A DNA stretch of 52,440 nucleotides from assembly GCA_947629125.1 (NCBI GenBank), contig CANRCO010000001.1:1-52440 (forward strand). The letters run 5' to 3'. The notes beneath the pieces are model-generated. The model saw nothing but the letters and a program-made list of their open reading frames with translations, was not told the DNA's origin and ran no database searches. The translations under genes and the position numbers were made by a program. Origin of the DNA: an uncultured Bacilli bacterium (GTDB taxonomy: Bacteria; Bacillota_I; Bacilli_A; RF39; UBA660). Positions 2,172-52,440 of this stretch are shown piece after piece (the first letter of the stretch is position 1; every line of letters begins with the position of its first letter).

Positions 2172-3785
2172 TTATTCATCAAATATTATAAATGGGTCAT
2201 TTTTACTTCCATCGCCACTTATTATTTTAACATCAGGTTTCAAATACACCACCGGTTGAGCAATAAACTTTTTACAAGAATCATTATCATCATTACAATT
2301 ATAATATCCTTGAGAAACGTTAACATTACTTAACATAGAATTTTCTTCAGTATTGTTAGGTGCAGTAACTACATTCATATTAGTCCGAAGTGGACTATTA
2401 TAATCATATGAATATATTGAAGAAATTGTCCAACTTGCTCCTATATTTGAATTATTTTTATATAACCAATTATTATTATAGCATTCACTATCGACATAAC
2501 TATTTGTTAAACATTCATCTCTAGATTTTATTTTACTGCCTGAGGATGCAAATAAATAATCGCTAGGATACATTAAACCTACATAACCTATCCAAGTATC
2601 ATCAAATTTATCTTTTCGTTCTAAATTATAAATATTATTTGCATTAGTATTTGAAAGATAAATGGTTTCTTCATTTAATGAATTTATATAATATACTGAA
2701 CGTTCAATAATACTCTTACTTTTATCGTTAATTGTATTATATAATTCTGATATGCCTCTAGTTATAATATTACCATAAGAATCCCCTTTATCACTTGTTT
2801 TTAAAAATGTAAAATATACATCATAATTTATACCATTTAAATCCACTACTTCTAATGGATTTAAATATGCCATAAGTTGACTTTCGCGCCAATCATTCCA
2901 ATAATATTCTTTTTTTAAATGGTTTCGCATCTTATAAGATCGTTTGTTATCCCATTCTGATGTGCTTATAGGATTATCTCTGATTATTTTAAGTTTTCTT
3001 GTTCTATTATCAGAATCGGTTACAACTTTAACATTATTCATAACTCCAATGATTCGCCATAGTTCATTATTAAATAAAATATAATTATTAGGATCTGCTC
3101 CAATATAACGATAATTATGATCATCTGTTTCATCATCAATTATTTCACTTGATTTTTTTGATAAAGCTATAATTTTAGTAGTTGCGTTTTGAGGTTTTAT
3201 GGCTAGACCATATATGGATATTTTACCTTCATATACTTTTTCCATTTCACTTTCTGGTGTGTCTTCATCCATCCATATTCTTAAAATATGTTGTTTTGTT
3301 GAACCATTTTGACCAACAGGAGCTAAATAAGAACTTTTTAAAGTTCTTGTATCATAAGCTATTTTTTGACCTAATAGCGTAGGAGCAATATTATAATTTC
3401 CAATAGTATTGATTGGTTCATTATCAATTATTGCATTTAAATACTTTAAACTTAGATAACCATCTTGTGCGGTATCAGAAATATTTAAACTTTCTAAATT
3501 GATATTATATTCTACATAATTATTACATTTATTTGTTAAAGTAAACGTAAATCCTTTAGTATTTTTTCCTTCTTCATCTATCATTGGAAAGGCATCTTCT
3601 AATGTTATGGCATCTGTATTTTCTGTAAAATCTAATTCAATACAAGAGGAAGCAACATTATTTTGATTATTTTGATGTTTAGATACAGTCCAAAATGCAT
3701 ATGTACCACTTAATAATAAAATTGTAATTATTAATATAGAAGATAAAATAATTATATTCTTTTTATTTAAAATTTTTTCTTTCAT
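2172..3785 (-). CDS. Secreted two-domain protein, paralog A of a five-member family (function unknown)
   Basis: 537 aa. The N-terminal basic and hydrophobic segment ends in GTYAFWT, which resembles a SipW-cognate-type signal motif. Family motifs present: LWRIIGVMNN, GLMYPSDY, and a C-terminal PVVYLKPDVKIISGDGSKNDPF. The GGAGG RBS (3793-3797) overlaps the stop of the upstream paralog. Confidence 0.9.
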   Translation of the reverse strand: MKEKILNKKNIIILSSILIITILLLSGTYAFWTVSKHQNNQNNVASSCIELDFTENTDAITLEDAFPMIDEEGKNTKGFTFTLTNKCNNYVEYNINLESLNISDTAQDGYLSLKYLNAIIDNEPINTIGNYNIAPTLLGQKIAYDTRTLKSSYLAPVGQNGSTKQHILRIWMDEDTPESEMEKVYEGKISIYGLAIKPQNATTKIIALSKKSSEIIDDETDDHNYRYIGADPNNYILFNNELWRIIGVMNNVKVVTDSDNRTRKLKIIRDNPISTSEWDNKRSYKMRNHLKKEYYWNDWRESQLMAYLNPLEVVDLNGINYDVYFTFLKTSDKGDSYGNIITRGISELYNTINDKSKSIIERSVYYINSLNEETIYLSNTNANNIYNLERKDKFDDTWIGYVGLMYPSDYLFASSGSKIKSRDECLTNSYVDSECYNNNWLYKNNSNIGASWTISSIYSYDYNSPLRTNMNVVTAPNNTEENSMLSNVNVSQGYYNCNDDNDSCKKFIAQPVVYLKPDVKIISGDGSKNDPFIIFDE

Positions 3786-3796
3786 TTTTTTACCTC

Positions 3797-5497
3797 CTAT
3801 AAACTTATTTTAAATGGATTTTCTTTTGTTCCTGTTCCACTTATTATTTTGACATTAGATTTTAAATATAGTACAGGGCGAACACTAAAATAAGATTGGA
3901 ATATGTTACCATTAGGGAAGACTTCATTACAGGACATACGTGCAGCATCGTAAACTGATCCCGCATATGGATTTAACATCAGTTGACCTTCTGATAATGG
4001 ATCAAATAGCCAGTTATTCTCATAACAATCTTCTAAGTCGCTCCAATTATATAATTCTTTTTTTAAACATGTATCTTTTGTTATTTTTGTACCTCCACTT
4101 GTAGCATAACCATAATCACTTGGGTACATTAATCCGATATAACCTGTCCATGTTGATTTATTTCCTGTATAAATTGAACTACTACGTTCTTTTGTATAAT
4201 AATCTAAAGCTGTGGCGGGAGAATATTCATCATAAGAATTAAATCCTCCTAAATGCCACAAGACTTCACCTATATATTTTTTGCTTTCCGCATTCAAACC
4301 TTCTTTGCTAAAATCTAAGTATTCCCAGTTGTTTGAGAATGTATTATTTTCTTTATTATATTCATAAATATAGTTTTTTGTAGTAGTTGTTGACTTATTC
4401 CAAAATGCTTCGTTTAAAGTTTTATTTAAACTAGCTTCTTCCCAGTTGTTTTTGTATGTACAATTATTACATTCTACTTCTTGATCATTTGTGGTTTTAG
4501 CATCCCATGCAATTCTTCCTATATCTTCATCTCTTATTATTTTTAATCTTGGTTTATTGTCACTACTAGTAGTATATCCATCATTCATTACTCCGATAAT
4601 ACGCCATAAGATTGGGTCGCCTTTTTTATGTAGTTGAGTACATTGCTTATTATATTTTGTATTTTTACTACACTCTTCATAAGAATGATATTCTACTGTA
4701 TCCCTACATATATCTGTTGAATCATGTCCAATCCATATATCTGTTGGATATTCACCATTTTCAACATCTATATAATTATTAGGTGCTTTACCAATATAAC
4801 GAATGTTTTTATCTTTTGTATCATCATAGATTAATTCAGAAATAATTTTATCTTCTGCTAATATTTTAATGAAATCAGTTATTTTCATGTTATATACTAA
4901 TTTTGAAGAAGTATAACCATAAATTGAAATTTTACTTTTATAAAATTTATTCATTTCACTTTTAGAAGTGCTTTCATCTAACCAAATCTTTAAAGTATAT
5001 TCTTTAGATTTATTTGGTACTAATATATCTGTTTTTATCAATCTAGTATCATAGCTTTCATTATCAGGCAATTGAGTTTTTTGTAATTTTTGATTACTTA
5101 TCTTTATAATTCCTGTATCAGAATTATTACTATCATTAAGGTTTATTTTAATACTATCTATATCAAGCCTATTATTTTTTTCTACATCAGATAAACTTTC
5201 TAAATTTATATCATATTCAACTATTGAGTTACATGTATTAGTTATTTTAAATGCATATCCAGGATTATCTAAACCTTGATCATCGGTCATTGGTACTTCA
5301 CCAATTAAATTTATACCTTCTGATATATCTTGGTAATCGATATCAAGGCAACTTGTTCCGGCAACATTTTTATCTTTTTGTTTGTCAGTAGTAGTCCATA
5401 AAGAATAAGAAACACCTAAAATTAGAACTATTATAACAAGAAATATTAAAATTATTTTAGGTTTAGTTATTTTTTGTAAAATTTCTTTAAATTTCAT
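3797..5497 (-). CDS. Secreted two-domain protein, paralog B
   Basis: 566 aa. The signal-like N-terminus ends in VSYSLWTTTD. Family motifs present: ILWRIIGVMN, IGLMYPSDYGYATSGG, VRPVLYLKSNVKIISGTGTKENPF. The start lies 2 nt after the stop of paralog C, with GGAGG (5504-5508) inside the last codons of C. Confidence 0.9.
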   Translation of the reverse strand: MKFKEILQKITKPKIILIFLVIIVLILGVSYSLWTTTDKQKDKNVAGTSCLDIDYQDISEGINLIGEVPMTDDQGLDNPGYAFKITNTCNSIVEYDINLESLSDVEKNNRLDIDSIKINLNDSNNSDTGIIKISNQKLQKTQLPDNESYDTRLIKTDILVPNKSKEYTLKIWLDESTSKSEMNKFYKSKISIYGYTSSKLVYNMKITDFIKILAEDKIISELIYDDTKDKNIRYIGKAPNNYIDVENGEYPTDIWIGHDSTDICRDTVEYHSYEECSKNTKYNKQCTQLHKKGDPILWRIIGVMNDGYTTSSDNKPRLKIIRDEDIGRIAWDAKTTNDQEVECNNCTYKNNWEEASLNKTLNEAFWNKSTTTTKNYIYEYNKENNTFSNNWEYLDFSKEGLNAESKKYIGEVLWHLGGFNSYDEYSPATALDYYTKERSSSIYTGNKSTWTGYIGLMYPSDYGYATSGGTKITKDTCLKKELYNWSDLEDCYENNWLFDPLSEGQLMLNPYAGSVYDAARMSCNEVFPNGNIFQSYFSVRPVLYLKSNVKIISGTGTKENPFKISL

Positions 5498-5499
5498 TG

Positions 5500-7266
5500 T
5501 TAACCTCCTAATCCTATTTTAAATGGATTTTCTTTAGTTCCTGTTCCACTAATTATTTTAATATCAGGCTTTAAATACAAAACAGGGTGAACAAGATACG
5601 TATGATGTGTGACGCCGTAGTCCACGCCGCCACCATCATTAATATACGTCACGTAGTCACTGAAGCTAGTAAATGGAGAAATTGTCCATTGAAAAGCTCC
5701 TTCTCCTTGATATAACCAATCATTATCTCGACATCCTACATTTTCATCATAATAATACCAATCATCTAATGGAACAGACATGCAGGTTTCTAATGGTGTT
5801 GTATATTGTTTATTACTCCGTGTTTCTAGCCCAACTCCTCCAGCTGTTGCAAACCCGTAGTCACTAGGATACATTAAACCGATTTGTCCTATCCATTCTT
5901 TTTGATTTCCTGGATATACATAATCACTTCGCTCAATATTATAGAATAAATTTGATGTTAAATTACCATAATAATTTTCTTTGCTACTACTCCGATCCGG
6001 TCCACCTAAGTTATATTTTACAGTATCTATCATATTTCTATATTCTGATTTTATTCCTTTGTTAGTAAAATCTATTTTTTCATATTTAAGATTTATATCA
6101 CTAAATCCTTTTGTATACCATGATATTCTATTATATTCATTTGATTTTGCACTATTTAAATACGCTGTATTTAATAATTTTTGTAAGCTAGATTCTGCCC
6201 AATTATTATAATAATCTGGGGATTGTATACAATGTCCTGGTTCATCTTCACTACGTAATTCATCACAACGTCTATCCCATGATATTTGTCCTATACCATC
6301 AGCTCTTATTAATTTTATCCTTGTATTTTTATTGCCACTACCATCTTCAACATTATTCATTACTCCGATAATGCGCCATAAGATTGGGTCGCCTTGAGAA
6401 TGCATTTTTGTACATCTTTTATTATATTTTAAGTCATCTTCACATTCTTGTTCGTTTGGAAATTGTTTTACTCCACTAGTATAGCTAACACCATCAAATC
6501 CATACCATACATCAGTATCATATTGACCATCACCAAAATCAACATAGTTATTTGGATTTTTACCTATGTATCTTAAATTATGGTCCTCTGTTTCGTCTAA
6601 TCTTAATTCTGAATTAATACTTTTACCAACTAAGTTAGAAATAAAATCAGTAAATTTCATATTGTAAACAACATTTGGATTAAAATAACCATTGATTGTT
6701 ATTTTACTATTATGTAATTTATTCATTTCACTATTTGGAGCACTATAATCTAACCATATTTTTAAATTAAATTCACGTGAACTATTAGGCATAACAAAAG
6801 TAGAATCAATTAATCTAGTATCATAACTTTCACCTTCAGTTAATAATGTAGTAGCTTTATCATAATTATTTAAAGTTTTGGCAGTATAAGCCATCATATT
6901 AGTATCAGTTACTACAGCATCCAAATAATCTATGCTAGCTCTACTTTCATCTGGTACTTCTGTTAAACTTTCTAAATTGATATCAATTGCAACAATTTGG
7001 TCACAATTATTAGTTATTTTAAATGTATAACCTTCTTGATTAAGTCCATTTTCTATATTAGTTGGCTCTAAATTTTCTAAATTAATACCTTCATTAATAT
7101 CTTCATAATCAATATCTAAACAAGTTGCAGTTAATGTATTTTCATCTTTTTGATGAGTTGTTGTTGTCCATAATGCTAAAGATACTCCGCCAACTAAAAG
7201 AATTATTCCAAGACATATAACAATAATATATTTTTTCTTTTTACTTTTTATTTCATCATTGTTCAT
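5500..7266 (-). CDS. Secreted two-domain protein, paralog C
   Basis: 588 aa. The N-terminus contains KSKKKKYIIVICLGIILLVGGVSLALWTTTT. It carries the same family motifs (ILWRIIGVMNNVEDG, IGLMYPSDYGFATAGG, VHPVLYLKPDIKIISGTGTKENPF). Confidence 0.9.
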   Translation of the reverse strand: MNNDEIKSKKKKYIIVICLGIILLVGGVSLALWTTTTHQKDENTLTATCLDIDYEDINEGINLENLEPTNIENGLNQEGYTFKITNNCDQIVAIDINLESLTEVPDESRASIDYLDAVVTDTNMMAYTAKTLNNYDKATTLLTEGESYDTRLIDSTFVMPNSSREFNLKIWLDYSAPNSEMNKLHNSKITINGYFNPNVVYNMKFTDFISNLVGKSINSELRLDETEDHNLRYIGKNPNNYVDFGDGQYDTDVWYGFDGVSYTSGVKQFPNEQECEDDLKYNKRCTKMHSQGDPILWRIIGVMNNVEDGSGNKNTRIKLIRADGIGQISWDRRCDELRSEDEPGHCIQSPDYYNNWAESSLQKLLNTAYLNSAKSNEYNRISWYTKGFSDINLKYEKIDFTNKGIKSEYRNMIDTVKYNLGGPDRSSSKENYYGNLTSNLFYNIERSDYVYPGNQKEWIGQIGLMYPSDYGFATAGGVGLETRSNKQYTTPLETCMSVPLDDWYYYDENVGCRDNDWLYQGEGAFQWTISPFTSFSDYVTYINDGGGVDYGVTHHTYLVHPVLYLKPDIKIISGTGTKENPFKIGLGG

Positions 7267-7335: not shown

Positions 7336-7364
7336 ATTATAAAATAATTATAGGGTATTTGCAA
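7336..7364 (-). promoter_or_regulatory. Candidate sigma-A-type promoter for the paralog C-B-A operon
   Basis: On the minus strand: TTGCAA (7359-7364), a 17-nt spacer, then TATAAT (7336-7341). It lies about 70 nt upstream of the ATG at 7266. TATAAT-like hexamers are frequent by chance in AT-rich DNA. Confidence 0.4.
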
Positions 7365-12110: not shown

Positions 12111-13163
12111 TTACTTATTTTTAATAAAGCCAAAATAATTACACATACATCTTTTACTAGGACAGATAAATTCATCTTTAATTAACTTAATATCTTTTTT
12201 TAAAGCATTACCTACTACTGATAATTCATTACAAGAAACACAACGAGAAATAATTCCTAAATTATCAATTGAAATACTATTTACTCCGGAATCACAAAGC
12301 ATACCACAAGGATTAAAACCACCTTCAACATTTAAAGCTAAATCACTAGTATTGTAAAAATAAAATTCTTGATTTTTTTGGTTTGTTACCTTTAACCATT
12401 TTTGGTTATTTCTATTTAGTTTTTGTTTTAAAGTTGCAGAAATACTTTTATGATAATCACGAATAATTATATAAACAATAGAAGAAGCATATTTTTTATA
12501 TTTCTCATAAAATTCTTGATATTTTAAATAATCTGCATCTTCAACTAAAGGATAACCAATATTAATTTTGATATTATAATTTCTCTTAGCTAAAAAATTA
12601 ATAAAAGGTGCTATAATTTTATTTTCATATTTAGCTTTTTTTAATACTAAAGAATTTATTTTAGGATGTTTATTACGAATATATTTGATTTTTTCCATGA
12701 ATTCTTTTTGATTTGTATATTCTTGATAATAATTAGCGGATATATTTAAAATTCGATTATCTAATCCTTTAAAAATATTTGTTATATTTTTTAATTGTTC
12801 TTTAGATAAAGATAAATTAGTAGTAATATAATAATTAATAATTCCCTTAAATTTAACATTAGCTAAATTAGTTAAAATAGTTATAAAATCTTTTAAAATA
12901 GTTACTTCTCCTCCAATTAAATAAAGAGAAATAGTTTTATATTTATCATTTAATTCATTTTCAATAAATTTAATAATTTTAGTACATATTTTAGCTCTTA
13001 TTTGTGCTGATTCGCCTTTACTTTCTTCAATATGTTTGTTTTTATTGCCTTGAATACAAAAATCACAATAATAGTTACATAAACTAGTTAATTGCCAACG
13101 AATTGTATAGTTTTTATCTTTTCGTTTTAAATTTTCAATTGTTTTTATTTCTGAATTTTTCAT
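12111..13163 (-). CDS. Radical SAM enzyme with a Cys-rich SPASM/twitch-like C-terminal region (paralog 1)
   Basis: 350 aa. It has a CNYYCDFC (CxxxCxxC) cluster motif. The C-terminus CGMLCDSGVNSISIDNLGIISRCVSC...CPSKRCMC fits a C-x(9-15)-G-x4-C pattern plus extra Cys. Confidence 0.8.
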   Translation of the reverse strand: MKNSEIKTIENLKRKDKNYTIRWQLTSLCNYYCDFCIQGNKNKHIEESKGESAQIRAKICTKIIKFIENELNDKYKTISLYLIGGEVTILKDFITILTNLANVKFKGIINYYITTNLSLSKEQLKNITNIFKGLDNRILNISANYYQEYTNQKEFMEKIKYIRNKHPKINSLVLKKAKYENKIIAPFINFLAKRNYNIKINIGYPLVEDADYLKYQEFYEKYKKYASSIVYIIIRDYHKSISATLKQKLNRNNQKWLKVTNQKNQEFYFYNTSDLALNVEGGFNPCGMLCDSGVNSISIDNLGIISRCVSCNELSVVGNALKKDIKLIKDEFICPSKRCMCNYFGFIKNK

Positions 13164-13210
13164 ATTATCACTTCTAATTAAAAATTATAATATTTATTAT
13201 GAAAGGAGTC

Positions 13211-13243
13211 AACAAAACAAAAAAATTTTCTATTTCTAGAAAA
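13211..13243 (-). terminator. Weak AT-only hairpin plus T-run after the 177-aa ORF
   Basis: Stem ttttcta (13226-13232) / tagaaaa (13237-13243). On the minus strand it is followed by TTTTTTTGTTTTG. The stem is all A/T, so termination efficiency is doubtful. Confidence 0.3.
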
Positions 13244-13250
13244 ATTTTAA

Positions 13251-13784
13251 TTACTTTGTCAATTTTCTTACTTTTGCTTCAGTATCATTATTTACAATTG
13301 TAGCTGGTAAATAAGTAAAATCTGTCATACTAAGCAACCCATTTTCACCATTCATTTTTTGAACTTCAAGATAATTTTTATTATTATAAACAGTAATATT
13401 ATCACTTATATAATTATATATTCCCAGTGGAACTTCCTCTACTTTGGTATTAACATTAATTAAACCATATGTTATGCTAACTTGATCTTGCTTTCCATTA
13501 GGAAAATAATTAATTTTCATAATTTTACGATATTCTTGATTATTTTTTGCAAATATTGGATTATCACTAATTTTAGAATAACCTCTTTGTTTAATTACAC
13601 TAGTTAAATCAGTTGTTTCATCAATAGCTAAGTTGGAATATTCTTTTATAGAATTAGGATTTTTATAAGCTGTATAACAAGTAGTAGCTATCATTGCTCC
13701 AACTGCCAACGTACAAAGACAACCAGGTAAACATCCAGAAGATGCATATGTTTTACCATCATCATTATGCCAATTTTCTTTCAT
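13251..13784 (-). CDS. Hypothetical protein with an N-terminal Cys-rich hydrophobic segment
   Basis: 177 aa. The N-terminus contains SSGCLPGCLCTLAVGAMIATTCYTAY. I recognise no family. Confidence 0.6.
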   Translation of the reverse strand: MKENWHNDDGKTYASSGCLPGCLCTLAVGAMIATTCYTAYKNPNSIKEYSNLAIDETTDLTSVIKQRGYSKISDNPIFAKNNQEYRKIMKINYFPNGKQDQVSITYGLINVNTKVEEVPLGIYNYISDNITVYNNKNYLEVQKMNGENGLLSMTDFTYLPATIVNNDTEAKVRKLTK

Positions 13785-13845
13785 CTAATTTTCTCCTTTT
13801 AAAATTGCAAAACATATGCTAACAAAAAATACGCATTTTGTCAAA

Positions 13846-15009
13846 TTATTTTAAAATACTTTCCCATTTATTTAATATCTTATCTTTTGTAAAATCTTGA
13901 ACTCGTTTTTGACTAGCTAATTGATAATGTTTATATAACTTTTTATCATTTAAAAGTAATAAAATACTTTTAGCTATTTCTTTTTCTTCTTTAGTTAAAG
14001 CATCACCTGCTTCATATTTAACCCGATCACAAGTCGGAATTAAAATACCATAATCTCCTAAAGTTACTTTTTTAACAAATTTATCTAACTTTTTCTTAGG
14101 GGCTAAAATTTCTTTGGAACCACCTGGAGCATCTGTAGCAATAATTGGTAAATCACAAGCCATTGCTTCTAATAAAACATTAGGCATTCCTTCATAAAAA
14201 GAATTTAAAATATATATTTTAGCATTGTGCATATAACGATAAATATTATCAACAAAATCTAGTATTATGATATTTTTTTCTAAATGTAAATCTTTAACTA
14301 ATTTTAAATAATAATCTTTATATGGTCCGCGTCCAGTCAAAATTAATTTAGCGTTCTTCTTTTGTTCAACTACTTTACTAAAAGCTCTAATTAAATGCCA
14401 TTGTCCTTTTTGATAATTATATCGACCAGAAGAAATTATTACATCACCTTTAAAATATTTTCTATCTTCACTAGGTAAAGCTTCTTGTTTTTTTTCATTA
14501 ATATCTTCAATTTCACAAAAATTAGGAATTACAATATTTTTTTTAGGTTTAGAGTGAAAATTTTCAATTTGGTCCAACATAACTGATTCAGATACATTAA
14601 CTATTAAATCAACTTTCTTAATTATTTTTTTATATTTTTTAATTAATTTTGGAGAATACATCTCATCATTAGCTGAAATAAAATTTCTAACAGAAATTAT
14701 TACTTTATCTTTATATTTAGTTACATAATTATAAATATTATATTTAAGTATAAAACTAATTGTATAGTCTATTTTTAACTCTTTTTTTACTTTTCTTAAT
14801 TTCCATAAACCAATAAAATTTTTCTTTTTACTAGTTAGTTCAGGAATTTCAATTATATTAACATCGGGAATATAATCAGCATCTTTCATCGTTCTAACTA
14901 CTAAAGTAACATTATGTTTATCTTTTAGATTATTGCATAAATTATAAATTACTTTTTCTGCCCCACCTGTACGCATAGCACCTATCAAAAATAAAATATT
15001 TTTTTTCAT
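13846..15009 (-). CDS. Glycosyltransferase, GT4 family (paralog of 18231..19385)
   Basis: 387 aa. Motifs: GGAEKV at the N-terminus and EGMPNVLLEAMACDLPIIATDAPGGSKEIL. Confidence 0.85.
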   Translation of the reverse strand: MKKNILFLIGAMRTGGAEKVIYNLCNNLKDKHNVTLVVRTMKDADYIPDVNIIEIPELTSKKKNFIGLWKLRKVKKELKIDYTISFILKYNIYNYVTKYKDKVIISVRNFISANDEMYSPKLIKKYKKIIKKVDLIVNVSESVMLDQIENFHSKPKKNIVIPNFCEIEDINEKKQEALPSEDRKYFKGDVIISSGRYNYQKGQWHLIRAFSKVVEQKKNAKLILTGRGPYKDYYLKLVKDLHLEKNIIILDFVDNIYRYMHNAKIYILNSFYEGMPNVLLEAMACDLPIIATDAPGGSKEILAPKKKLDKFVKKVTLGDYGILIPTCDRVKYEAGDALTKEEKEIAKSILLLLNDKKLYKHYQLASQKRVQDFTKDKILNKWESILK

Positions 15010-16614
15010 TTAATCACCTACATTTTCTTTATACCACAATTGAAATAAATAATAAGACCATAAAACAACAGCTCGATCATAATCTTTATTAATTTCAAAA
15101 TCAATTATTAAATTCATTAAATTATTATAATCAAATAAATTTTGTTTTGCTATAAAATTTTTCGTTGATATTTTTTTGATATCATCTAACATAAATTTCT
15201 GAACCCAACTAATTAAAGGAATCCCAAACCCTTTTTTTTGATAATTAGCAAAATATTTCATCGGAATATTTTTAAATAAAATATTATCAAAGATAAGTTT
15301 ACCATGACCATGATGATATATCTTTTTTGTTTTTAATTTAAAAGTATCTAATATTAATTGTTCATTATAAAAAGGTGTATAAAACGCCATATTAATATTT
15401 TTTAAAGGATAAAAATACTTCATCCGATATTTTTCACTAACTGTATTATTTAAATCACCAAGACATGCTCGATATCTTTTATTTTTTAATTTTGGCAAAT
15501 CATAAACTTGTCCCTTAATTTTAACTAAATTATTGGAATACCGAAAACGACTTACAATATTTATTTGCGCCATTTGGTCAAAATTATGATATTTTCTTTG
15601 TCTAAAATATTTATTAAAAATTAATTTTAATCGACCTTTTAAATCAAATATTTTATACATTTCATTAGCTAAAAATATTGCATCACTACCTTCGCCCATT
15701 AAATAAAAATCATTTTTATCAGTTATATTATTAATTAAGTAATTTGTTGGAATAATTGAAGGGTCTGCAAATGGTTCTTCATATATTTTAGCTAAAGATT
15801 TAATAGTATCTTTAATTTTATTTTCTTTTAAAATAATAGTATGATGATTAGTTTTTAAAAACTTTGCAATTTTTTTCGCAGCAGGAGCTTCATCATTTTG
15901 ACTAGGAATAGATAAAGTATAAGTATTAATAGTTGGTAAATAACAATCTTGGGTCTTTTTAGCTAGAAGGACTGAATCTTTACCACTACTCAAAAACACC
16001 CCTACTTGGCTTTTCTTTTTGCCAACTTGAGCTACTAAATTATTTATTGTCTTTTCTAAATCGACATCATTATTTTTCAAAGTGTTTTTATATTCATTTG
16101 CTAAATTAAAATAATTTTTAATTTTAATATTTTTAAAATTATATTCTAATATGGAACCTTTAGGTACTTTATAGATATTTTCATAAATAGTAAATGGTTC
16201 ATAAATATAAGTATAACCTAAGTAATTAGCTAAAGCTTGTTTATTTATTTTTTTTACAATACTAGGTAATTTAGTAATCTCTTTTAAAGAATCACTAAAA
16301 ATTAACAATCTATTTTGGAAAGTATAAAACAAAGGATAACTCCCTAATTTATCTTTAATTAAAAATAAAGTTTCTTTATTTTTATCAAAAATTATCATAT
16401 TAAAATTACCAGTCAACTCATCAATAAATTTTAAATTGGTTTTAGTATATAAATCTAATAGAATATTTAATTCATTAACACTATTTATTTTATTTTTTTG
16501 TTTTAACTTTTCTAAATTAAAAATGGTTCCAATTAAATATATTTCAACATTATCATGACTTATTTTTTTTGGTAAATTTATTTTAAAGCTCTTATCTTTT
16601 TGTAAACTTATCAT
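15010..16614 (-). CDS. Asparagine synthetase (AsnB)-like ATP-dependent amidoligase lacking the N-terminal Cys nucleophile
   Basis: 534 aa. It begins MISLQKD rather than MCG. It keeps the AsnB-type GNFNMIIFDK..LFLIKDKLGSYPLFY segment and a PP-loop-like FLSSGKDS. Confidence 0.8.
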   Translation of the reverse strand: MISLQKDKSFKINLPKKISHDNVEIYLIGTIFNLEKLKQKNKINSVNELNILLDLYTKTNLKFIDELTGNFNMIIFDKNKETLFLIKDKLGSYPLFYTFQNRLLIFSDSLKEITKLPSIVKKINKQALANYLGYTYIYEPFTIYENIYKVPKGSILEYNFKNIKIKNYFNLANEYKNTLKNNDVDLEKTINNLVAQVGKKKSQVGVFLSSGKDSVLLAKKTQDCYLPTINTYTLSIPSQNDEAPAAKKIAKFLKTNHHTIILKENKIKDTIKSLAKIYEEPFADPSIIPTNYLINNITDKNDFYLMGEGSDAIFLANEMYKIFDLKGRLKLIFNKYFRQRKYHNFDQMAQINIVSRFRYSNNLVKIKGQVYDLPKLKNKRYRACLGDLNNTVSEKYRMKYFYPLKNINMAFYTPFYNEQLILDTFKLKTKKIYHHGHGKLIFDNILFKNIPMKYFANYQKKGFGIPLISWVQKFMLDDIKKISTKNFIAKQNLFDYNNLMNLIIDFEINKDYDRAVVLWSYYLFQLWYKENVGD

Positions 16615-18227
16615 GTTTTATCCCTCCATAAATCTTCTATATATTCTTGGTACCATAATTGAAAGATATAATAAGCAAAAATTATATTACATTCTCGGCG
16701 GTCTAAAGATTTATTTTGTAATTTTTTTAGAAGTTTTAAAAATTGTTTATCAAATAAATTTTGTTTTTTTAAAATTTCATAATTACTAAATTTTATAATA
16801 TCATTATAGAATATATTATACAAATATTTTTCTAAAGGAATACCAAAACCATTTTTCTTTTGATTTAAATAACTTTGGGGAATTTTTTGATAAACTATGT
16901 TTTTTAAAATATATTTAGTTATATTTTGATAATATTTAAATTTATGTTTTATTTGTAAGCTTTTTTGTACTACTATATTATCTACAAAAGGATGAGCTAA
17001 ATTTAAACCATAATAATTAGCTGGATTACTTACTTTATAAAATAAATTACAAGATAAAAAAGTTTTAATATCGTTTAACATAAACTTAATTTGCGAACTA
17101 AACTGATGGGGAATTACATTATAGATTTGAGATTTTAAAGGATAATATAATGCTAGTTGTCGATTAGATTTTAAATATGGATTATAAACAATGACATTTT
17201 TATTTTTTAAATGTTGAATTTTTTGACGCAAAATTGTCATTCGCTCACTTATATTCCATTCTTTGTAAACATTGGAACCACAAAATAATTGGTCAGCACC
17301 ATCACCAGTAAAGATTATATCCATATTTTTTACTTTACTGTTTAAAAATATAGTTGGAACCAATGACGGATCAGCAAATGGTTCACTATATATCTTAGGT
17401 ACTAATTTAATAATTTTTTCAACATCTTTATCAGTTATATAATATTCGTGATGCTTGGTCTTTAAATGCTTAGCAATTTTTTTACTACGTACTGCTTCAT
17501 TGCGTTCTTCTTCATTAAAACCAATTGTAAAGGTATGAACTTCTTTTTTAGCTTCTTTTAATAAAGCAGCTACTAAAGTAGAATCTACTCCTGCACTAAA
17601 AAAGACCCCAACTTTTTTATAGTTTTGCGATTGCATCTTAACAGCATCATATAAACTTTGTTCTAATTTTTGTTGAGCTAAATCATAATTTTTTAATTTA
17701 TTTTTATTGACTTTATATGCTTTTATTAAATCATAATATTGATTAAGTATAATTTGTTCATTAAATTTTAAAGCCATACCTGCTGGTAATTTTTTTACTT
17801 CTGTAAAAATAGTCATTGGTTCTAAAATATAATTATAACTTAAATAGTTAGCTAATTGTTGTCGGTCAATATTTAAATCAGTTTTATAATTATTTATAAT
17901 ATATTTCAAGTTATTAGAACAAATAAAATCTTGATTAATTAAAGTATAATATAGTCGTTTAGAGCCCATTTTATCTTTAACTATAATAATTTCTCCAGCA
18001 ATAATTAAAATAAGTAAAAAATTACCATTTAACAAATTAAATAATTTGTCTTGATAACGGTTATATAAATCAATTAATTTTGACTCAATAGATTTAGAAG
18101 AATTATCTAATTCATTTATATTATAAATATTACCAGCAATAAAGCAGTAATCTTTATTTATTTGTTTAACATTATTTTCAATAATTACTTTTATTTTATT
18201 TTTTCTTTTTATTACTGTAAATTCCAT
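16611..18227 (-). CDS. Asparagine synthetase (AsnB)-like enzyme lacking the N-terminal Cys nucleophile (second copy)
   Basis: 538 aa. It begins MEFTVIK. Motifs: GNFLLILIIAGEIIIVKDKMGSKRLYY and PP-loop FFSAGVDS. The stop overlaps the next gene start by 4 nt. Confidence 0.8.
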   Translation of the reverse strand: MEFTVIKRKNKIKVIIENNVKQINKDYCFIAGNIYNINELDNSSKSIESKLIDLYNRYQDKLFNLLNGNFLLILIIAGEIIIVKDKMGSKRLYYTLINQDFICSNNLKYIINNYKTDLNIDRQQLANYLSYNYILEPMTIFTEVKKLPAGMALKFNEQIILNQYYDLIKAYKVNKNKLKNYDLAQQKLEQSLYDAVKMQSQNYKKVGVFFSAGVDSTLVAALLKEAKKEVHTFTIGFNEEERNEAVRSKKIAKHLKTKHHEYYITDKDVEKIIKLVPKIYSEPFADPSLVPTIFLNSKVKNMDIIFTGDGADQLFCGSNVYKEWNISERMTILRQKIQHLKNKNVIVYNPYLKSNRQLALYYPLKSQIYNVIPHQFSSQIKFMLNDIKTFLSCNLFYKVSNPANYYGLNLAHPFVDNIVVQKSLQIKHKFKYYQNITKYILKNIVYQKIPQSYLNQKKNGFGIPLEKYLYNIFYNDIIKFSNYEILKKQNLFDKQFLKLLKKLQNKSLDRRECNIIFAYYIFQLWYQEYIEDLWRDKT

Positions 18228-18230
18228 CTT

Positions 18231-19385
18231 TTATTCCTCGATAATTTTTAACCAATCTTGCATAACTAAAATATTTGTAAAATCATTGATTCTAGTTAAG
18301 GATTTTTTGTGATATTCTTCATAAGTTTGTTTATTTTCTAACAATTCTATTATGGCCTTAGCTAATATTTTTTCATTTTTGGTAATTGTCTCAATTTCAT
18401 GTTCATTAATAAAACTAGGTATCAATAAACCATAATCACTTTTTGTTAATTTCGTTGTTATATTATTAAAATCATAAGTTTTACTTAAAATTTCTTTAGA
18501 ACCACCTGGAGCATCTGTAGCAATAACTGGCGTACCACAACTCATAGCTTCAATTATTACATTAGGAAATCCTTCATAATCACTAGCTAATATAAAACAT
18601 TTTGCCTTTTTTAAAAATTGATAAGGATTAGGATGAAATCCTAAAAAGAAAACATTATTCTCTAAATGATACTTTTTAACTAGCTCTTCTAAATATTCTT
18701 TTTGAGGTCCACGACTAAAAATAACTAAATGAGCATCTTTAACATTTTTTACAACCAAACTCATAGCTTTAATTATATGTTTATGTCCTTTATGAGGTAC
18801 TAATCTTGCTAAAGCAACTACTAAATGGTCATTAACAATTGGTTTATCTTCTTTACTAAAACGTTTTTTTACTTCTGTAGCGATTTCTTCCAAATTGCAA
18901 AAATTAGTTATAACTGCCACTTTTTCGGCAGCAGCATGATAATTATTTATTTGGTCATTTGCTACGCTATTCGAACAACAAACTATTTTATCGGCTTTTT
19001 TCAAAGATATTTTGTGTAAAATTGTGGGAATAAATCCCTCTTTTTTCGTTGATAAATGGTTACGAACAGAAATTATTACTTTATCTTTATATTTTGTAAT
19101 AGCATTAAAAAAATTAAAAACTGTAGTATAACTTATCGTTACATCAATTTTATATTCTTTTTTTAACTGACGAATTTTACGAATACCAAATATTTTTTTC
19201 TTTTTATTTTTTAAATCGGGTACTTCAATAATTGGCACAGTAGTTTCATAATCTTGATTACGTTTTGAAACTACTACTAATATTACGTTATGTTTTTTTT
19301 GTAATTCATTAGCTAACTTAATTATGGAATGCTCTGCTCCACCATTAGATAGATAACCAATAAGTAACATAATATTTTTTGCCAT
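18231..19385 (-). CDS. Glycosyltransferase, GT4 family (paralog of 13846..15009)
   Basis: 384 aa. Motifs: GGAEHS and EGFPNVIIEAMSCGTPVIATDAPGGSKEIL. Confidence 0.85.
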   Translation of the reverse strand: MAKNIMLLIGYLSNGGAEHSIIKLANELQKKHNVILVVVSKRNQDYETTVPIIEVPDLKNKKKKIFGIRKIRQLKKEYKIDVTISYTTVFNFFNAITKYKDKVIISVRNHLSTKKEGFIPTILHKISLKKADKIVCCSNSVANDQINNYHAAAEKVAVITNFCNLEEIATEVKKRFSKEDKPIVNDHLVVALARLVPHKGHKHIIKAMSLVVKNVKDAHLVIFSRGPQKEYLEELVKKYHLENNVFFLGFHPNPYQFLKKAKCFILASDYEGFPNVIIEAMSCGTPVIATDAPGGSKEILSKTYDFNNITTKLTKSDYGLLIPSFINEHEIETITKNEKILAKAIIELLENKQTYEEYHKKSLTRINDFTNILVMQDWLKIIEE

Positions 19386-19386
19386 A

Positions 19387-20445
19387 TTAAGACCTTCTTT
19401 CTATTAAAGTATAATAATCACAATTACATTTTGTAGCGGGACAAATAAACGGTTTAGAAATTAATTTTAAGTCATTATCTAAAATATTAGTAATTATAGT
19501 TTCTTTAGCACAACTTAAACAGCGTGAAACATCACCCATATTATTAATAGTGATACTATTCATTCCTGAATCACAATACATACCTTTTGGATTAAAAGTA
19601 TCTGATACTTTTATATTTATTTTACTTGTATTAGTAAAATAAATTTGTTCATTATTTTTTAAAGTAACTCTTATTTTTGGATAATTATTTTTATTTAATT
19701 TCTGTTTTAATTTAGAAGAAATACTTTTCTTATAATTACGAATAATTATATAGTTAATAGTATTAACATACTTTTTATAATGTTTTTTAAATTTTTTAAA
19801 TGCTTGATAATCTTCATCAGTAACTAAAGGATAACTTACTCCAATGTAAATATTGGAAATGTCTTTTTCCCATTTATTAATTAGTTTTTTTAATAATTTT
19901 ATTTTTTTAAATAAATAAGCATTATTAACAAATAATTGTTTTATTTTATTTTTAATTTGAAATATTTTTAATTTATCAATAAAATCTTGAGGTGTTGTAT
20001 ATTCTTTATAATAACTAGCTGTTAAATTAAGAAAACGATTATTTTTATTTTGAAAAATATCTTTTATTTTTTGTAAATTGTCTTTTGATGTTGATAAATT
20101 AGTGGTAATAAAAATTTTAATTATGCCCGGAAATTTAGAATTTACTAAATCATTTAATATTTTAGAAAAGTCCTTTAAAATAGTTATTTCTCCCCCAATA
20201 AGATATAAATAAATTTTTTGATATTTTTTACTTACTTCATTTTCTATAAATTTAATTAAATTAGCACATATGTGCTCGCGAATTTTCATTGATTCCTTTT
20301 TACTATCACTTAGATGTTTAGCTTTATTTCCTTGCACACAAAAATCACAACTATAATTACATAATTTAGTAATATTCCATCTAATTATATAAGTATTTTT
20401 ATCTATTCGTAAATTCTCAATTTTAATTATATCTTCATTTTTCAT
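19387..20445 (-). CDS. Radical SAM enzyme with a SPASM/twitch-like C-terminus (paralog 2)
   Basis: 352 aa. Motifs: CNYSCDFC and the C-terminal CDSGMNSITINNMGDVSRCLSC...CPATKCNC. By eye it is about half identical to 12111..13163. Confidence 0.8.
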   Translation of the reverse strand: MKNEDIIKIENLRIDKNTYIIRWNITKLCNYSCDFCVQGNKAKHLSDSKKESMKIREHICANLIKFIENEVSKKYQKIYLYLIGGEITILKDFSKILNDLVNSKFPGIIKIFITTNLSTSKDNLQKIKDIFQNKNNRFLNLTASYYKEYTTPQDFIDKLKIFQIKNKIKQLFVNNAYLFKKIKLLKKLINKWEKDISNIYIGVSYPLVTDEDYQAFKKFKKHYKKYVNTINYIIIRNYKKSISSKLKQKLNKNNYPKIRVTLKNNEQIYFTNTSKINIKVSDTFNPKGMYCDSGMNSITINNMGDVSRCLSCAKETIITNILDNDLKLISKPFICPATKCNCDYYTLIERRS

Positions 20446-22430: not shown

Positions 22431-23027
22431 CTAATCACTTACAGTTGCAAGTTCAGTAACACTAGGAATACTTCCACTAGCACCAGAATTTGTAAAGAAT
22501 ACTAAACCAGTACTTTTCATTTTTACGCCAGTATGAGTTTTTAAATAATCATATAATTTTTGACCACCACTAACTGTACTTGTATAAGCTAAAAAGGCTG
22601 TATTATACTCTGCATCAGTCTTATCATCAGATTCTCTTCGTGAATAATCTGTATTATCACCTACTGAAAGCGGTTTTCTCTTATAACCATATGTACCATC
22701 ACTTATCGAAAAATGATATTCTACTTTTTTGCCATTTTTTTCAACATGAACAGCACCGCTATAACTAGATGATTGTTTATCATAGTAACCTAAATCACTT
22801 AAAAAATTTAAACTTAAAACCAAATCATCATACTTTCGCAAAGAAGAATTTTCAGTATAAGCAAGTTCTGCAGCTTTTACTAATTCTCTACCTTCATTTA
22901 ATAAAGATTTTGCTTTTGACTTTTCAATCATTGGCAATACACCAATTGCAGCAATAAGCATTACTATACCTAAAATAGTTATTACTGCTAATAATTCGAT
23001 TAATGTAAATCCTTTACTTTTTTTCAT
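22431..23027 (-). CDS. Type IV pilin / pseudopilin-like protein 2 (prepilin N-terminal cleavage/methylation motif)
   Basis: 198 aa. MKKSKGFTLIELLAVITILGIVMLIAAIGV has the G/FTLIE class III signal with Glu5. The C-terminal tail is Ser/Thr/Gly-rich (NSGASGSIPSVTELATVSD). Confidence 0.85.
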   Translation of the reverse strand: MKKSKGFTLIELLAVITILGIVMLIAAIGVLPMIEKSKAKSLLNEGRELVKAAELAYTENSSLRKYDDLVLSLNFLSDLGYYDKQSSSYSGAVHVEKNGKKVEYHFSISDGTYGYKRKPLSVGDNTDYSRRESDDKTDAEYNTAFLAYTSTVSGGQKLYDYLKTHTGVKMKSTGLVFFTNSGASGSIPSVTELATVSD

Positions 23028-23088: not shown

Positions 23089-23658
23089 TTATAATTTTTT
23101 ATTATAAATGCTTACTTTTTTACCACCTATGGTTATACTTTGACCTTCATTTATATTACTTGTTCCAGCATATGATGAATTACCACTGTAACAAACTGCT
23201 TCATAATGTTTTGCACTTTCTTTTATTGATTTAGATAAAACATAATCTTTAGCATTTTTATCTTGCATATTATTCATATTTTGCCAAGCAGTTGCTCCAC
23301 TTTTTGTTTCATAACCAATAGTACCTATTTCACTTTTTATTGTATATTTTTTAATTAATTCACCACCATTATATTCAATATAAACACTACCAGAATAGCC
23401 ATCTTCTATACCTTTATCAAAAAAATTTTTATCATGTAACCATTCTAAAGAAATACAAACATTTTTGCCAACCATTTGTTTATTATCAGAATATGCAAGT
23501 TCAGCAGCATGAACTAATGTTTTTCCTTCATCAAATAAAGCATCATTTTTTGATTTAGTCATTACTGGTATAACTCCAATTGCAGCAATAAGCATTACTA
23601 TACCTAAAATAGTTATTACCGCTAATAATTCAATTAAAGTAAAACCTTTTTTATTCAT
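23089..23658 (-). CDS. Type IV pilin / pseudopilin-like protein 1
   Basis: 189 aa. MNKKGFTLIELLAVITILGIVMLIAAIGV. The first ~55 aa are near-identical to pilins 2 and 3; the rest is divergent. Confidence 0.85.
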   Translation of the reverse strand: MNKKGFTLIELLAVITILGIVMLIAAIGVIPVMTKSKNDALFDEGKTLVHAAELAYSDNKQMVGKNVCISLEWLHDKNFFDKGIEDGYSGSVYIEYNGGELIKKYTIKSEIGTIGYETKSGATAWQNMNNMQDKNAKDYVLSKSIKESAKHYEAVCYSGNSSYAGTSNINEGQSITIGGKKVSIYNKKL

Positions 23659-31892: not shown

Positions 31893-31918
31893 CAAAGAAA
31901 AAAAGCAAAAATTGCTTT
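31893..31918 (-). terminator. Candidate terminator after the 1421-aa gene
   Basis: Stem aaagcaa / ttgcttt lies at about 31902-31918. On the minus strand it is followed by TTTTTTCTTTGG. It overlaps the stop codon. Confidence 0.45.
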
Positions 31919-41578: not shown

Positions 41579-43238
41579 TTAAATAGATAATTGAAATGGA
41601 GCTTCTTTAGAACCATCACCTGCAGTAATTTTGACATTTGATTTTAGATATAAAACCGGTCGCACTAGAAAACTATTCGAATTAGCGAAAACATAACCTA
41701 CATGACCATCATAATCTACACGATAGGCAGAATACCCTAAATCCGCAGATGGAGTTATCATCCATTGTTCATATTTTTCATTCCATAACCAATCTTTTAT
41801 ATAGCATTTTTCTAAGGTATTCATATAATTATATAATGTTGTATTTAAACATTCTTCCCTTGTTTTAGTTTCACCACCGTTTGTTGCAAATCCATAATCA
41901 CTTGGATACATTAAACCAATATAGCCTGTCCAAGTTATTAGTCTTGATAATCCATTACTACTATAAATATTCTTACTTCGTTCTACATCATAATATTGTT
42001 TTGCTATTAGCATTTGATAATCGTATTCACTATTATCGTGTTTATTTGGACCTCCTAAATAGAATAGAGCTTTATCAATGTATTTTTTACTCTCATCAGT
42101 TAAACCATTACTACTAAAATCACTTTGTTCTTCTGTAAAATTGGTTTTAGTTGCTTGAGCTGGCTTATAGCCTTTTGTTCTATTAAAATAACTTCCTATT
42201 CCTTTATAGATTGTTTGACTTTTTCCATCTTTTGCTACTGTTACTGCTCCATCTTCACTTATTGAATAGTTTGATTTATCTGTTTCTTTCCAATTCTCTT
42301 GTACTACATCTTTAGGATTTAGCATCATCATGAGTTGACTATCTGTCCAATCATTACTTCCATTATTGTTTGTTGAAGAACCTACTCCGTTTTGTTTACT
42401 ATCCCATTTAAATTCTCCTAATAATTCTGCTCTTATTAGTTTAACACGACTTTCTTTTTTGTCTTTACCATCTTCGACATTATTCATTATTCCAATAATA
42501 AGCCATTTCTCTCCATTGAAGTCAACATAGTTGTTTGGGTCTGCTCCGATATATCTCAAGTTGTTATCGCTTGTTTCATCATAAGCTAATTCTTCATTAT
42601 CTTCACTGATGATTCTAATGTAATCACTTGCTAGTATATTCTCTCTTTTGATACTATCTATCTCTATTTTACTTTCAAAGGTATTATTTTGTTCTAATTC
42701 ATTAAAACTAGTATTTTCATCTAGCCAGATTTTTAAATTTAATTGCTTACTATTATTAGCATCTATTTTTACTGTTGTTAAATGTTTGCCTATATTATAA
42801 TCTTTATTTGTTGTTTCTCTATCTAATAAATTATTTAAATTATTTGGTTCAATTATTTTTTGATTGTTATATAGTAATGTTGCTCTAATATTCTTTTCAT
42901 TTAATGTATTGTTTTTATTTATATCTAAGTTTACTTCCACATATTCTTCATGATTACAATTATTTTGAATTGTAAATGTATAACCTTCTTGTTTTAAACC
43001 ATCAACATCTGGTGTTTGGTAGGCATTCTCTATATTTATATTTGTTCCTTCAGTTACATCTAGTTTTAAACACCCACTACTTATTTTATTTATACTTGTT
43101 TGTTCTTGTGTTGTACTCCATAGGGCATAACTTATTCCACTTATTATTAGTACTCCTACTAATACTCCCAAACAAGCTAATATCTTCGGGTACTTTTGTT
43201 TATTAAAATACCCCCCCCCGATTTACGTTATGATTCAT
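41579..43238 (-). CDS. Secreted two-domain protein, paralog D; the ATG (43236-43238) is out of frame with the body because of a C9 tract
   Basis: The ORF as sequenced is 41579..43171 with a TTG-initiated call. The upstream ATG frame reads MNHNVNRGGVF*. With one C fewer it reads MNHNVNRGGYFNKQKYPKILACLGVLVGVLIISGISYALWSTTQ..., a complete signal peptide like the other paralogs. Family motifs present: IIGIMNNVEDG, IGLMYPSDYGFATNGG, VRPVLYLKSNVKITAGDGSKEAPF. Confidence 0.8.
43211..43219. repeat. Homopolymeric tract C9 (G9 on the coding strand)
   Basis: It is read directly: positions 43211-43220 are ccccccccc followed by g. I noticed no other G/C run longer than 5 anywhere in the window. Confidence 0.95.
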
Positions 43239-51308: not shown

Positions 51309-52440
51309 TCAAATCATTAATTTAAAAGGATCTTCTTTAGTACCTGTTCCACCCATTATTCTTACATTTGGTTTTAAATATATTACAGGTCTAACAAGGT
51401 ATGAATAATTTAATTCATAATCAAAACCACCAGTATTAGAAATCCTAACAACTCCACCATCTGTATATGCTGTAATTGTCCATTGATATACATCTTCAAT
51501 ATACAACCAATCATTATCTCGACAACCTAAATATTCATTTAAATTCCAATTATATACAGGTGTATTCATACAAGTTTCAAGTAAAGTTATATATTGCTTT
51601 TCACTCCAAGTGTCTATACCAATACCACCACTGGTTGCATAACCGTAGTCACTGGGATATATTAAACCAATTTGTCCTATCCATTCAGTTGGATGATTTG
51701 TACTTACATTATTACTTCGTTCGACATTATATAATAAATTTGGTGTCAATTTTCTATAATAATTTTCTTTACTACTACTATAATCTACTTCGCCTAATTT
51801 ATATTTTATAGTATCTATCATATCTCTATATTCTGCTTTTATTCCTGTTTTTGTAAAATCTATTTTTTCGAATTTTCTATTATGAAATCCCATCAATTGA
51901 TTAGTCCAACGATTATAATCAGTTGATTTTACACTGTTTAAATATGCATCATTTAATAATTTTTTTAAACTAGAATTTTCCCAATTATTATCATATGAAT
52001 AATCTCCTATACAATTTTCTTGTGTCTCATCAAATTGATTGCTAAGACATTTATTATCCCAAGATATTTGACCTATTCCATCATCTTTAATTAATTTAAT
52101 TCGAGCAGATTTAGTACCATTAGAATCTTCAACATTATTCATAACTCCGATAATGCGCCATAAAATTTTATCCCCTTGAGAATGAATTTTTATACAAATT
52201 TTATTTATAGAATCATCTTCACAAGCTTCTTTTGTAGAATATTCTTTAGTTTCTCCAATAAAACCAGTATATTCAAAACCATACCATAAATCACTATCAT
52301 AAGTGCCATCACCAAAATCAACATAATTGTTTGGATTTTTTCCTATGTATCTTAAATTATTATCAGTTGTTCCATCATATCTTAATTCTGAATTTGTACT
52401 TGATTTTTCTAATTCAGTTATTTTAGCTACTGCAGTTGGG
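51309..52440 (-). CDS. Secreted two-domain protein, paralog E (5' end lies beyond the window)
   Basis: The frame stays open from 52142 up to 52440. It reads ..LRYIGKNPNNYVDFGDGTYDSDLWYGFE...HSQGDKILWRIIGVMNNVEDSNG.., so the ORF-track Met at 52142 is internal. The closest relative is paralog C. Motifs present: IGLIYPSDYGYATSGG, VRPVIYLKPNVRIMGGTGTKEDPF. Confidence 0.9.
   Translation of the reverse strand, partial: PTAVAKITELEKSSTNSELRYDGTTDNNLRYIGKNPNNYVDFGDGTYDSDLWYGFEYTGFIGETKEYSTKEACEDDSINKICIKIHSQGDKILWRIIGVMNNVEDSNGTKSARIKLIKDDGIGQISWDNKCLSNQFDETQENCIGDYSYDNNWENSSLKKLLNDAYLNSVKSTDYNRWTNQLMGFHNRKFEKIDFTKTGIKAEYRDMIDTIKYKLGEVDYSSSKENYYRKLTPNLLYNVERSNNVSTNHPTEWIGQIGLIYPSDYGYATSGGIGIDTWSEKQYITLLETCMNTPVYNWNLNEYLGCRDNDWLYIEDVYQWTITAYTDGGVVRISNTGGFDYELNYSYLVRPVIYLKPNVRIMGGTGTKEDPFKLMI

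Follow-up and report, generated by a model that had tools for sequence, protein, structure and literature searches.

DUF6273 is an orphan domain that has been described in a gut bacterial peptidase and in phages. The N-terminal domain of the immunoglobulin A (IgA) peptidase (IgAse) of Thomasclavelia ramosa, residues 31-322, is annotated as DUF6273 (PMC12402451). It is an unusually large C-type-lectin-like domain that lacks the canonical Ca2+/sugar loop and is related to the C-terminal domain of Legionella Lcl (PMC12237041). In some target proteins of phage diversity-generating retroelements (DGRs), DUF6273 heads are the hypervariable receptor-binding domains (PMC10743442). Another relevant group is found in Mollicutes, where homopolymer frameshifts occur in DUF285 genes of Mycoplasma agalactiae (PMC2824730). 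The present analysis concerns three adjacent genes, A, B and C, at positions 2172 to 7266 of a 52,440-nucleotide stretch of DNA (the window) from an uncultured Bacilli bacterium (contig CANRCO010000001.1, assembly GCA_947629125.1). Their products share a leader, a jelly-roll domain and a divergent DUF6273 head of the C-type-lectin-like fold. They are probably exported or surface-held, non-enzymatic lectin-like binding proteins, and the large family to which they belong would constitute a variable repertoire of adhesins or antigens.

The three genes are encoded on the minus strand. Gene A (7266..5500, 588 amino acids) is identical in sequence to database entry P0006. It is followed by gene B (5497..3797, 566 amino acids), the copy chosen for structure modelling, and by gene C (3785..2172, 537 amino acids). 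The stop-to-start gaps are 2 nucleotides (CA) between A and B and 11 nucleotides between B and C. A GGAGG lies within the final codons of gene A (TTA GGA GGT TAA) and is the putative ribosome-binding site of gene B (5504..5508, minus strand). A second GGAGG overlaps the TAG stop of gene B and is the putative ribosome-binding site of gene C (3793..3797, minus strand). The open reading frames confirm what the initial annotation of this DNA had reported, namely three co-oriented genes of these lengths and spacings, with GGAGG embedded in the stop region of the preceding gene. The protein motifs that it listed are likewise all present in an alignment of the paralogues (G-x-S-Y-A-L-W, GY.F.ITN.C, INLESL, IWLDE, LWRIIGVMNN, GLMYPSDYG and VRPVLYLK..VKIISGTGTKENPF). 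Because of the short gaps and the placement of GGAGG in the end of the preceding gene, A, B and C are almost certainly co-transcribed and translationally coupled as one operon. A tentative sigma-70-type promoter (TTGCAA-17-TATAAT; 7364..7336, minus strand) lies in the 137 nucleotides that precede gene A. Across the triplet region such sites are no commoner than chance would give, and this candidate is singled out by its position only. No terminator-like site was found around the triplet, nor any invertible promoter or other repeats beyond those due to paralogy.

Sequence searches with the window proteins gave no significant match in Pfam, NCBIfam or PHROGs, the PHROGs match being marginal and about 50 residues long. 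A profile built from the 77-sequence family alignment matched no PDB sequence even at an E-value of 10, and the same was true of the N-domain alignment. The family is uncharacterised, as had been supposed from the sequence. No catalytic family was recognised by sequence or fold match, and there were no phage or defence matches either. An AlphaFold2 model of the gene B product on the family alignment reached a predicted local distance difference test score (pLDDT) of 87.1 and a predicted template modelling score (pTM) of 0.81. From the N-terminus, the model consists of a long helix that corresponds to the leader, a segment of low confidence (residues 29-46), an all-beta region (about 50-195), two short helices and a mixed alpha/beta domain of about 360 residues.

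Residues 205-566 of B (3800..4885, minus strand) comprise the neck helices and an enlarged C-type-lectin-like domain, assigned by fold and hidden Markov model (HMM) mapping to divergent DUF6273. The best PDB fold match of this C-domain in Foldseek is 9qa6, the T. ramosa IgA peptidase (probability 1.0, E 2e-6, 303 columns, 16% identity). From the aligned length, the secondary structure and the Pfam link, the aligned portion would be the N-terminal domain of IgAse. PF19789 (DUF6273) matches 15 of the 77 homologues (best E 1e-7), three of them above the gathering score of 23.5 bits (P0007, 32.4; P0055, 26.5; P0085, 23.9 bits). Positions 20-86 and 105-172 of the PF19789 model are colinear on the C-domain, around a large insertion. 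Phage DUF6273 proteins rank 3, 6 and 16 among the matches in a viral structure library. The initial annotation had guessed at a DUF6273/DUF1566-type fold, and these three results show that the guess was right. PF19789 does not match the window copies, except for a fifth copy, E, at E 0.23; by the curated cut-off the window proteins are outlying relatives of DUF6273 and not members. C-type-lectin-fold binding proteins usually vary just before the terminal strand, as do DGR targets such as Mtd. The C-domain is least conserved at residues 501-540 (approximately) of B, directly before the invariant terminal strand VRPVLYLK, and by analogy this may be the expected variable position. The C-termini of the proteins read ...G-x-G-T-K-E-x-P-F-x-I.

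The N-terminal domain (residues 44-204 of B; 4886..5368, minus strand) forms a jelly-roll beta-sandwich, modelled alone with a pLDDT of 88.5. It has no Pfam coverage. Its fold neighbours are weak, with template modelling (TM) scores of 0.37-0.48, and include AvmM, family-3 carbohydrate-binding modules, the diphtheria toxin receptor-binding domain and the archaeal bundling pilin 7ueg. The domain carries a conserved Cys pair (C50 and C89 in B). Conserved Cys pairs are present in both domains, and the mature part of every complete copy has an even number of Cys residues. By alignment, gene A (5500..7266) encodes a leader, the jelly-roll domain, a Cys-rich insert and the DUF6273-like lectin domain, and gene C (2172..3785) has the same architecture as A and B minus the Cys-rich insert. 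The leader takes up residues 1-33 or so of B (gene at 3797..5497). In 66 of the 77 homologues it has a median of three K/R residues followed by an uncharged run of about 21 residues and ends in the motif G-x-[ST]-[YF]-A-x-[WF]. Small residues occupy positions -3 and -1 of the possible cleavage site, which in B would follow S-Y-S at residues 30-32. On these features, export of the family proteins is a well-founded prediction. LPxTG or SPxTG sorting motifs occur in none of the 77 homologues, and no other wall anchor was seen.

The window contains two further copies, D and E, which join the triplet to make up the five copies noted initially; all the listed motifs are common to the five. Paralogue D (41579..43238, minus strand) has its ATG at 43238-43236 behind an AGAGAGG ribosome-binding site, and its frame is broken by a G9 tract. 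As a result, the open reading frame as listed (41579..43171, 530 amino acids) restarts at a TTG at 43171. Its closest homologues are P0003, P0016 and P0017. The internal start is likewise the one used in the gene calls of three D-like homologues in other assemblies. Directly upstream of D, a 110-amino-acid open reading frame (43566-43898, minus strand) matches the N-terminal domain only of DUF1016 (YhcG-type nuclease) and is probably a truncated remnant. Paralogue E (51309..52440, minus strand) is closest to A, with 58% identity in the C-domain, and its 5' part lies beyond the window end. Because the frame stays open through the window end, E is judged not to be a pseudogene. A tRNA-Glu(CTC) gene (51176-51251, minus strand) lies immediately downstream of E. 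The paralogues share 31-48% identity over the N-domain and 29-58% over the C-domain, with A nearest to E and not to its neighbours. Direct repeats at the DNA level, with a spacing of about 1.7 kb, reflect paralogy only. Given this identity, these repeats and more than 3,000 homologues, the similarity of the five copies is not due to chance. The copies are deeply diverged, which points to an array of old duplicates and not to recent amplification.

The family is large. A word-indexed search found more than 3,182 relatives, all of them unnamed or labelled 'hypothetical protein [Bacilli bacterium]'. An exhaustive profile search found 14,712, 9,168 and 3,634 representative clusters (50% identity) at E-values of at most 1e-3, 1e-10 and 1e-30, respectively. 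At least 563 loci are present in species-representative genomes, all of which are metagenome-assembled genomes (MAGs) from the gut. The MAGs are labelled as uncultured Bacilli or Tenericutes, Mycoplasma sp. CAG:956, Candidatus Ventrenecus and Candidatus Caccenecus, and they come from human, rabbit, chicken, mouse and ruminant hosts. It is common for a genome to have several family loci. Tandem arrays of two to three genes are also common, so the triplet is typical of the family.

The family is modular as well. In adjoining genes of some arrays, the leader and jelly-roll are fused to DUF285/leucine-rich-repeat (LRR) heads or to a weakly FGE-sulfatase-like head. Examples from related loci (L numbers) of array neighbours that share only the leader and jelly-roll and bear DUF285/LRR heads are L045 404-2878 and 3000-5219, and L005 14233-16281. 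Array neighbours at L009 5898-9905 share the leader and jelly-roll and have C-terminal regions of about 470 residues without a Pfam match. A 2,446-amino-acid protein with Listeria-Bacteroides repeats contains as many as seven copies of the lectin-like domain. No account of this architecture or family was found in the literature searched.

Homopolymeric G tracts are associated with the family. In the window, which has a GC content of 23%, the only G/C run of six or more nucleotides is the G9 tract of paralogue D (43211..43219, minus strand), at codons 7-9. It is a candidate slipped-strand on/off switch. With G9, the frame is broken after codon 9 and a stop follows after 11 codons; G8 or G11 restores the full leader (MNHNVNRGGYFNKQKYPKILACLGVLVG...). 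In 1.07 Mb of sequence flanking 78 related loci, there are 29 G8-G10 tracts; every one is on the same strand as the family gene, and the opposite strand has none. The chance expectation is about 0.2, an estimate made from base composition and not a tool output. The host genomes have a GC content of about 25%, and G8-G10 tracts are essentially absent away from these sites. By manual count, approximately two thirds of the tracts are at the 5' end of a gene with the family N-module or C-domain. A tract lies at most 400 nucleotides upstream of the leader motif in 15 of 81 N-terminally complete members.

The tracts occur in two arrangements. In one, the tract is 18-24 nucleotides past an ATG with a good ribosome-binding site (L010, L017, L044, three consecutive genes of L045, L048 and paralogue D of the window). 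In the other, it directly follows a TTGACA-type -35 box and lies 7-10 nucleotides ahead of TATAAT (L008, L027, L043 and L062). G10 tracts between TTGACA and TATAAT upstream of family genes were seen at L008 9739-9748, L027 9811-9820, L043 8538-8547, L062 3019-3028 and L002 589-598. The promoter spacers are 19-22 nucleotides long in the assembled state (manual count). These G10 spacers look like promoter-spacer phase switches caught at their 'off' length. In Mycoplasma hyorhinis, the Vlp genes have a homopolymer in the promoter spacer. Both arrangements are classical layouts of slipped-strand contingency loci. Tract lengths of G8, G9 and G10 are found across loci, and homologous promoters differ in length (G9 in L060 as against G10 in L056 and L067). 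Taken together, the tracts suggest that poly-G slippage would switch genes on and off.

Tracts were also seen before or inside genes that do not belong to the family (L001 2402-2410 and 13722-13729; L045 8383-8392; L048 8438-8447; L043 1697-1706). One of these genes encodes a DUF1016/YhcG-type nuclease-like protein, and others bear a leader with a Y-A-x-F-T/E-E motif. One open reading frame, recognised by eye, we take to be Abi-like. Poly-G contingency loci seem to be used beyond this family in these genomes.

A mechanism can be proposed from these features. The basic and hydrophobic leader would direct the protein through the Sec pathway. It would then be cut after S-Y-A in the conserved S-Y-A-x-W site or be retained as a membrane anchor. 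The disulfide-containing jelly-roll may act as a stalk or as a second binding module. The enlarged DUF6273-type head would bind a ligand. The likeliest ligands are glycans or proteins carried by host mucus, by particles of food, by other microbes or by phage, and the head's specificity may be set by the poorly conserved segment before the last strand. Many family members, paralogue D included, would be toggled by poly-G slippage, which would give a variable surface repertoire of adhesins or antigens. The triplet A-C, without such a switch, would be expressed from an ordinary promoter. An adhesin or antigen repertoire is the favoured reading because the proteins combine a leader with a beta-sandwich and a lectin-fold head, and because the family shows no sign of catalysis, interchangeable heads, diverged copies and homopolymer switches. 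An expanded surface or secreted family, perhaps of adhesins or lectin-like proteins, had also been proposed in the initial annotation, and that proposal fits these features as well as the even Cys counts and the gene arrays.

Several observations weigh against this reading. The uncharged run of the leader is long enough for a membrane anchor, and it does not divide secreted from anchored proteins. The canonical EPN/QPD and WND Ca2+/sugar motifs are absent from A, B and E and only sporadic in the 77 homologues. To our knowledge, no ligand is known for any DUF6273 domain. Catalysis by IgAse does not require its N-terminal domain, to which no function has been assigned (PMC12237041). The triplet has no G/C run of six or more nucleotides, and phase variation belongs to relatives and not to A-C. 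Every tract within a gene is out of frame as assembled. No allelic copies came up in two pattern scans of metagenomes, and tract-length polymorphism within a population was not observed. The family had been described before this analysis as 'diversifying', a point on which substitution rates are uninformative. Among the five copies, the rates of nonsynonymous (dN, 0.31-0.75) and synonymous (dS, 0.67-1.15) substitution are saturated and compositionally biased.

Other explanations of the triplet were weighed against the same evidence. The family could consist of TasA-like fibre subunits, in which the conserved N-terminal segment (LWTTTDKQKDKNV in B) donates a strand to the jelly-roll of the next subunit, the paralogues co-assemble and the lectin heads are displayed. 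An hhalign comparison of the family with a TasA alignment pairs residues 1-85 with TasA 1-77 (probability 68%, E 4.7e-5), so that the family segment faces residues 28-38 of TasA, which form its donor strand (PMC9674648). TIGR04088 matches 6 of the 77 homologues (best E 3e-4), although none of the window copies, and a TasA model matches two. Segment 29-46 of B has a pLDDT below 50, yet its conservation equals that of the folded domains. One fold match of the N-domain is 7ueg, a TasA-like bundling pilin from archaea (probability 0.99, TM 0.41; PMC9245690), and TasA-type operons likewise hold paralogous subunits (PMC9674648, PMC11580942). However, the N-domain profile without the leader gave no significant match to the TasA profile (E 0.27), and PF12389 matched neither the window copies nor the homologues. 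TasA is outside the top 50 fold matches of the N-domain, all of which have TM scores below 0.5. A tblastn search with Bacillus subtilis SipW, a probe that scored 238 bits against the SipW model NF046067, gave no match better than E 0.33 in the window and the 1.07 Mb of flanks, and no sipW-like gene lies within about 10 kb of any of the 78 loci. A head of about 360 residues per subunit is also without precedent among TasA fibres. Of the SipW/TasA-type leader noted at first, a likeness to SipW-dependent leaders thus stands, which appears real but weak; it vanishes when the leader is left out of the comparison, and no sipW was found in the window or the flanks searched. A fibre of the TasA type is on balance unlikely. 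A bolder variant is a modular, phase-variable adhesive pilus, in which the N-module (leader, conserved but disordered segment and jelly-roll) would polymerise by donor-strand exchange, the interchangeable subunits would carry lectin-like, LRR or FGE-like heads, and poly-G switches would choose the subunits that enter the fibre. The chance that uncultured gut Bacilli build such a pilus, of a kind not yet described, is slight.

The genomic setting bears on two further explanations. The triplet is inside a glycan-synthesis cluster that has GT1 genes to either side of it and also encodes an ABC exporter, a nucleotidyl transferase, a GHMP kinase and a radical S-adenosylmethionine (SAM) enzyme. This setting, and the lack of a sortase motif or other wall anchor, would suit envelope proteins that bind the cell's own surface polysaccharide, with a head that is retained on, or organises, the glycan from the flanking cluster. 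However, gene context is not conserved. One other family member is located between pheST and tgt, where glycan genes are absent, and members are scattered or in tandem in many contexts. Poly-G switching is also better suited to externally selected proteins than to structural ones, and it is improbable that the proteins serve the cell's own glycan. The neighbours of the family genes also argue against prophage-derived receptor-binding (tail fibre) proteins: they are housekeeping or glycan genes of the chromosome, and phage genes are not among them. DUF6273 is a phage receptor-binding module (PMC10743442), and the best matches in the viral structure library include DUF6273 proteins of phages. 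Yet tblastn found no relative in 50,697 phage genomes, the PHROGs match is marginal, and the proteins have Sec-type leaders. A prophage origin is largely refuted and has hardly any probability left. Finally, the proteins may be secreted enzymes, for instance FGE-like or glycan-modifying, of a catalytic family too divergent to recognise. The C-type-lectin-like fold is common to FGE-sulfatase-type enzymes, and one long relative has a weak FGE-sulfatase match (E 7e-5). Against this, the invariant residues are mostly aromatic, Gly, Pro or Cys, a pattern typical of a structural core. No catalytic family emerged by sequence or fold, and the closest solved relative is a non-catalytic accessory domain (PMC12237041). 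An enzymatic function is very unlikely.

Other genes of the window, all on the minus strand, were noted in passing. The glycan cluster contains an internal duplication (12111-20445), with paralogous pairs judged by eye. The pairs are radical SAM genes (12111-13163 and 19387-20445), glycosyltransferase genes (13846-15009 and 18231-19385) and asparagine-synthase-like genes (15010-16614 and 16611-18227). Two adjacent genes (22431-23027 and 23089-23658) encode products with a type IV pilin/pseudopilin N-terminal methylation motif (KGFTLIELLAVITILGI), the first recognised by Pfam N_methyl (E 1.3e-9) and the second read by eye. Further along, a 1,421-amino-acid, very Cys-rich protein with a signal peptide (31917-36182) adjoins a 238-amino-acid protein with a signal peptide and a C-terminal membrane anchor (36192-36908), the latter without a meaningful Pfam match. 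These two products may form another surface structure.

The hosts of the family are small-genome, low-GC Bacilli that are common in human and animal guts. They are represented here by MAGs only, and their surfaces are little known. A family of more than 9,000 clusters with a ligand-binding type of head and candidate switches is a good candidate for attachment, IgA evasion or phage evasion. For the orphan domain DUF6273, the family adds a second cellular context to that of the IgA peptidase. Poly-G tracts would be simple markers in metagenomic reads, and surface variation could be measured with them in vivo without cultivation.

Compared with known systems, the head is most like the N-terminal domain of IgAse (PDB 9QA6), the only DUF6273 member with a solved structure. 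Both are about twice the normal size of a C-type-lectin-like domain, neither has the canonical Ca2+/sugar loop, and IgAse, as predicted for the proteins described here, is secreted and located at the surface of a gut Firmicute with low GC content (PMC12237041, PMC12402451). The two differ in that IgAse carries the domain N-terminal to a metallopeptidase, whereas here, at 16% identity, it is a C-terminal head without an enzyme. The C-terminal domain of Legionella Lcl (DUF1566; PDB 8Q4E) is a C-type-lectin-like adhesin head and has been named as the closest relative, by structure, of the N-terminal domain of IgAse (PMC12237041). However, it is not among the top fold matches of the C-domain, and the link to it is second-hand. 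The phage DUF6273 'tentaclins' and DGR targets belong to the same domain superfamily and use a ligand-recognition head with a variable surface patch (PMC10743442). They are phage structural proteins diversified by a retroelement, in contrast to the chromosomal, leader-bearing proteins described here. No reverse transcriptase lies near the window genes, and variability would arise through paralogy and poly-G tracts. TasA, CalY and BsaA (PF12389, TIGR04088) resemble the family in the patterning of the leader and the first 50 or so mature residues, in the jelly-roll and in having paralogous genes in one operon. They differ in the lack of significant similarity past the leader, of a linked sipW and of PF12389, and in the extra 360-residue head found here. 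The phase-variable families of Mollicutes, such as the Drp/DUF285 and Vpma proteins of Mycoplasma agalactiae, are likewise multi-copy, scattered or arrayed, encoded in small low-GC genomes and provided with homopolymers in the 5' coding region or the promoter spacer. DUF285 heads fused to the N-module of this family provide a further link. The present family differs from the Mollicutes systems in that its tracts consist of G and not of A, its proteins lack a lipobox and its domains are not the same. The architecture, the family size, the host clade and the poly-G device are new here. The kind itself is already known from Mollicutes, whose small low-GC genomes encode surface protein families of many copies, the genes having homopolymer tracts at their 5' ends.

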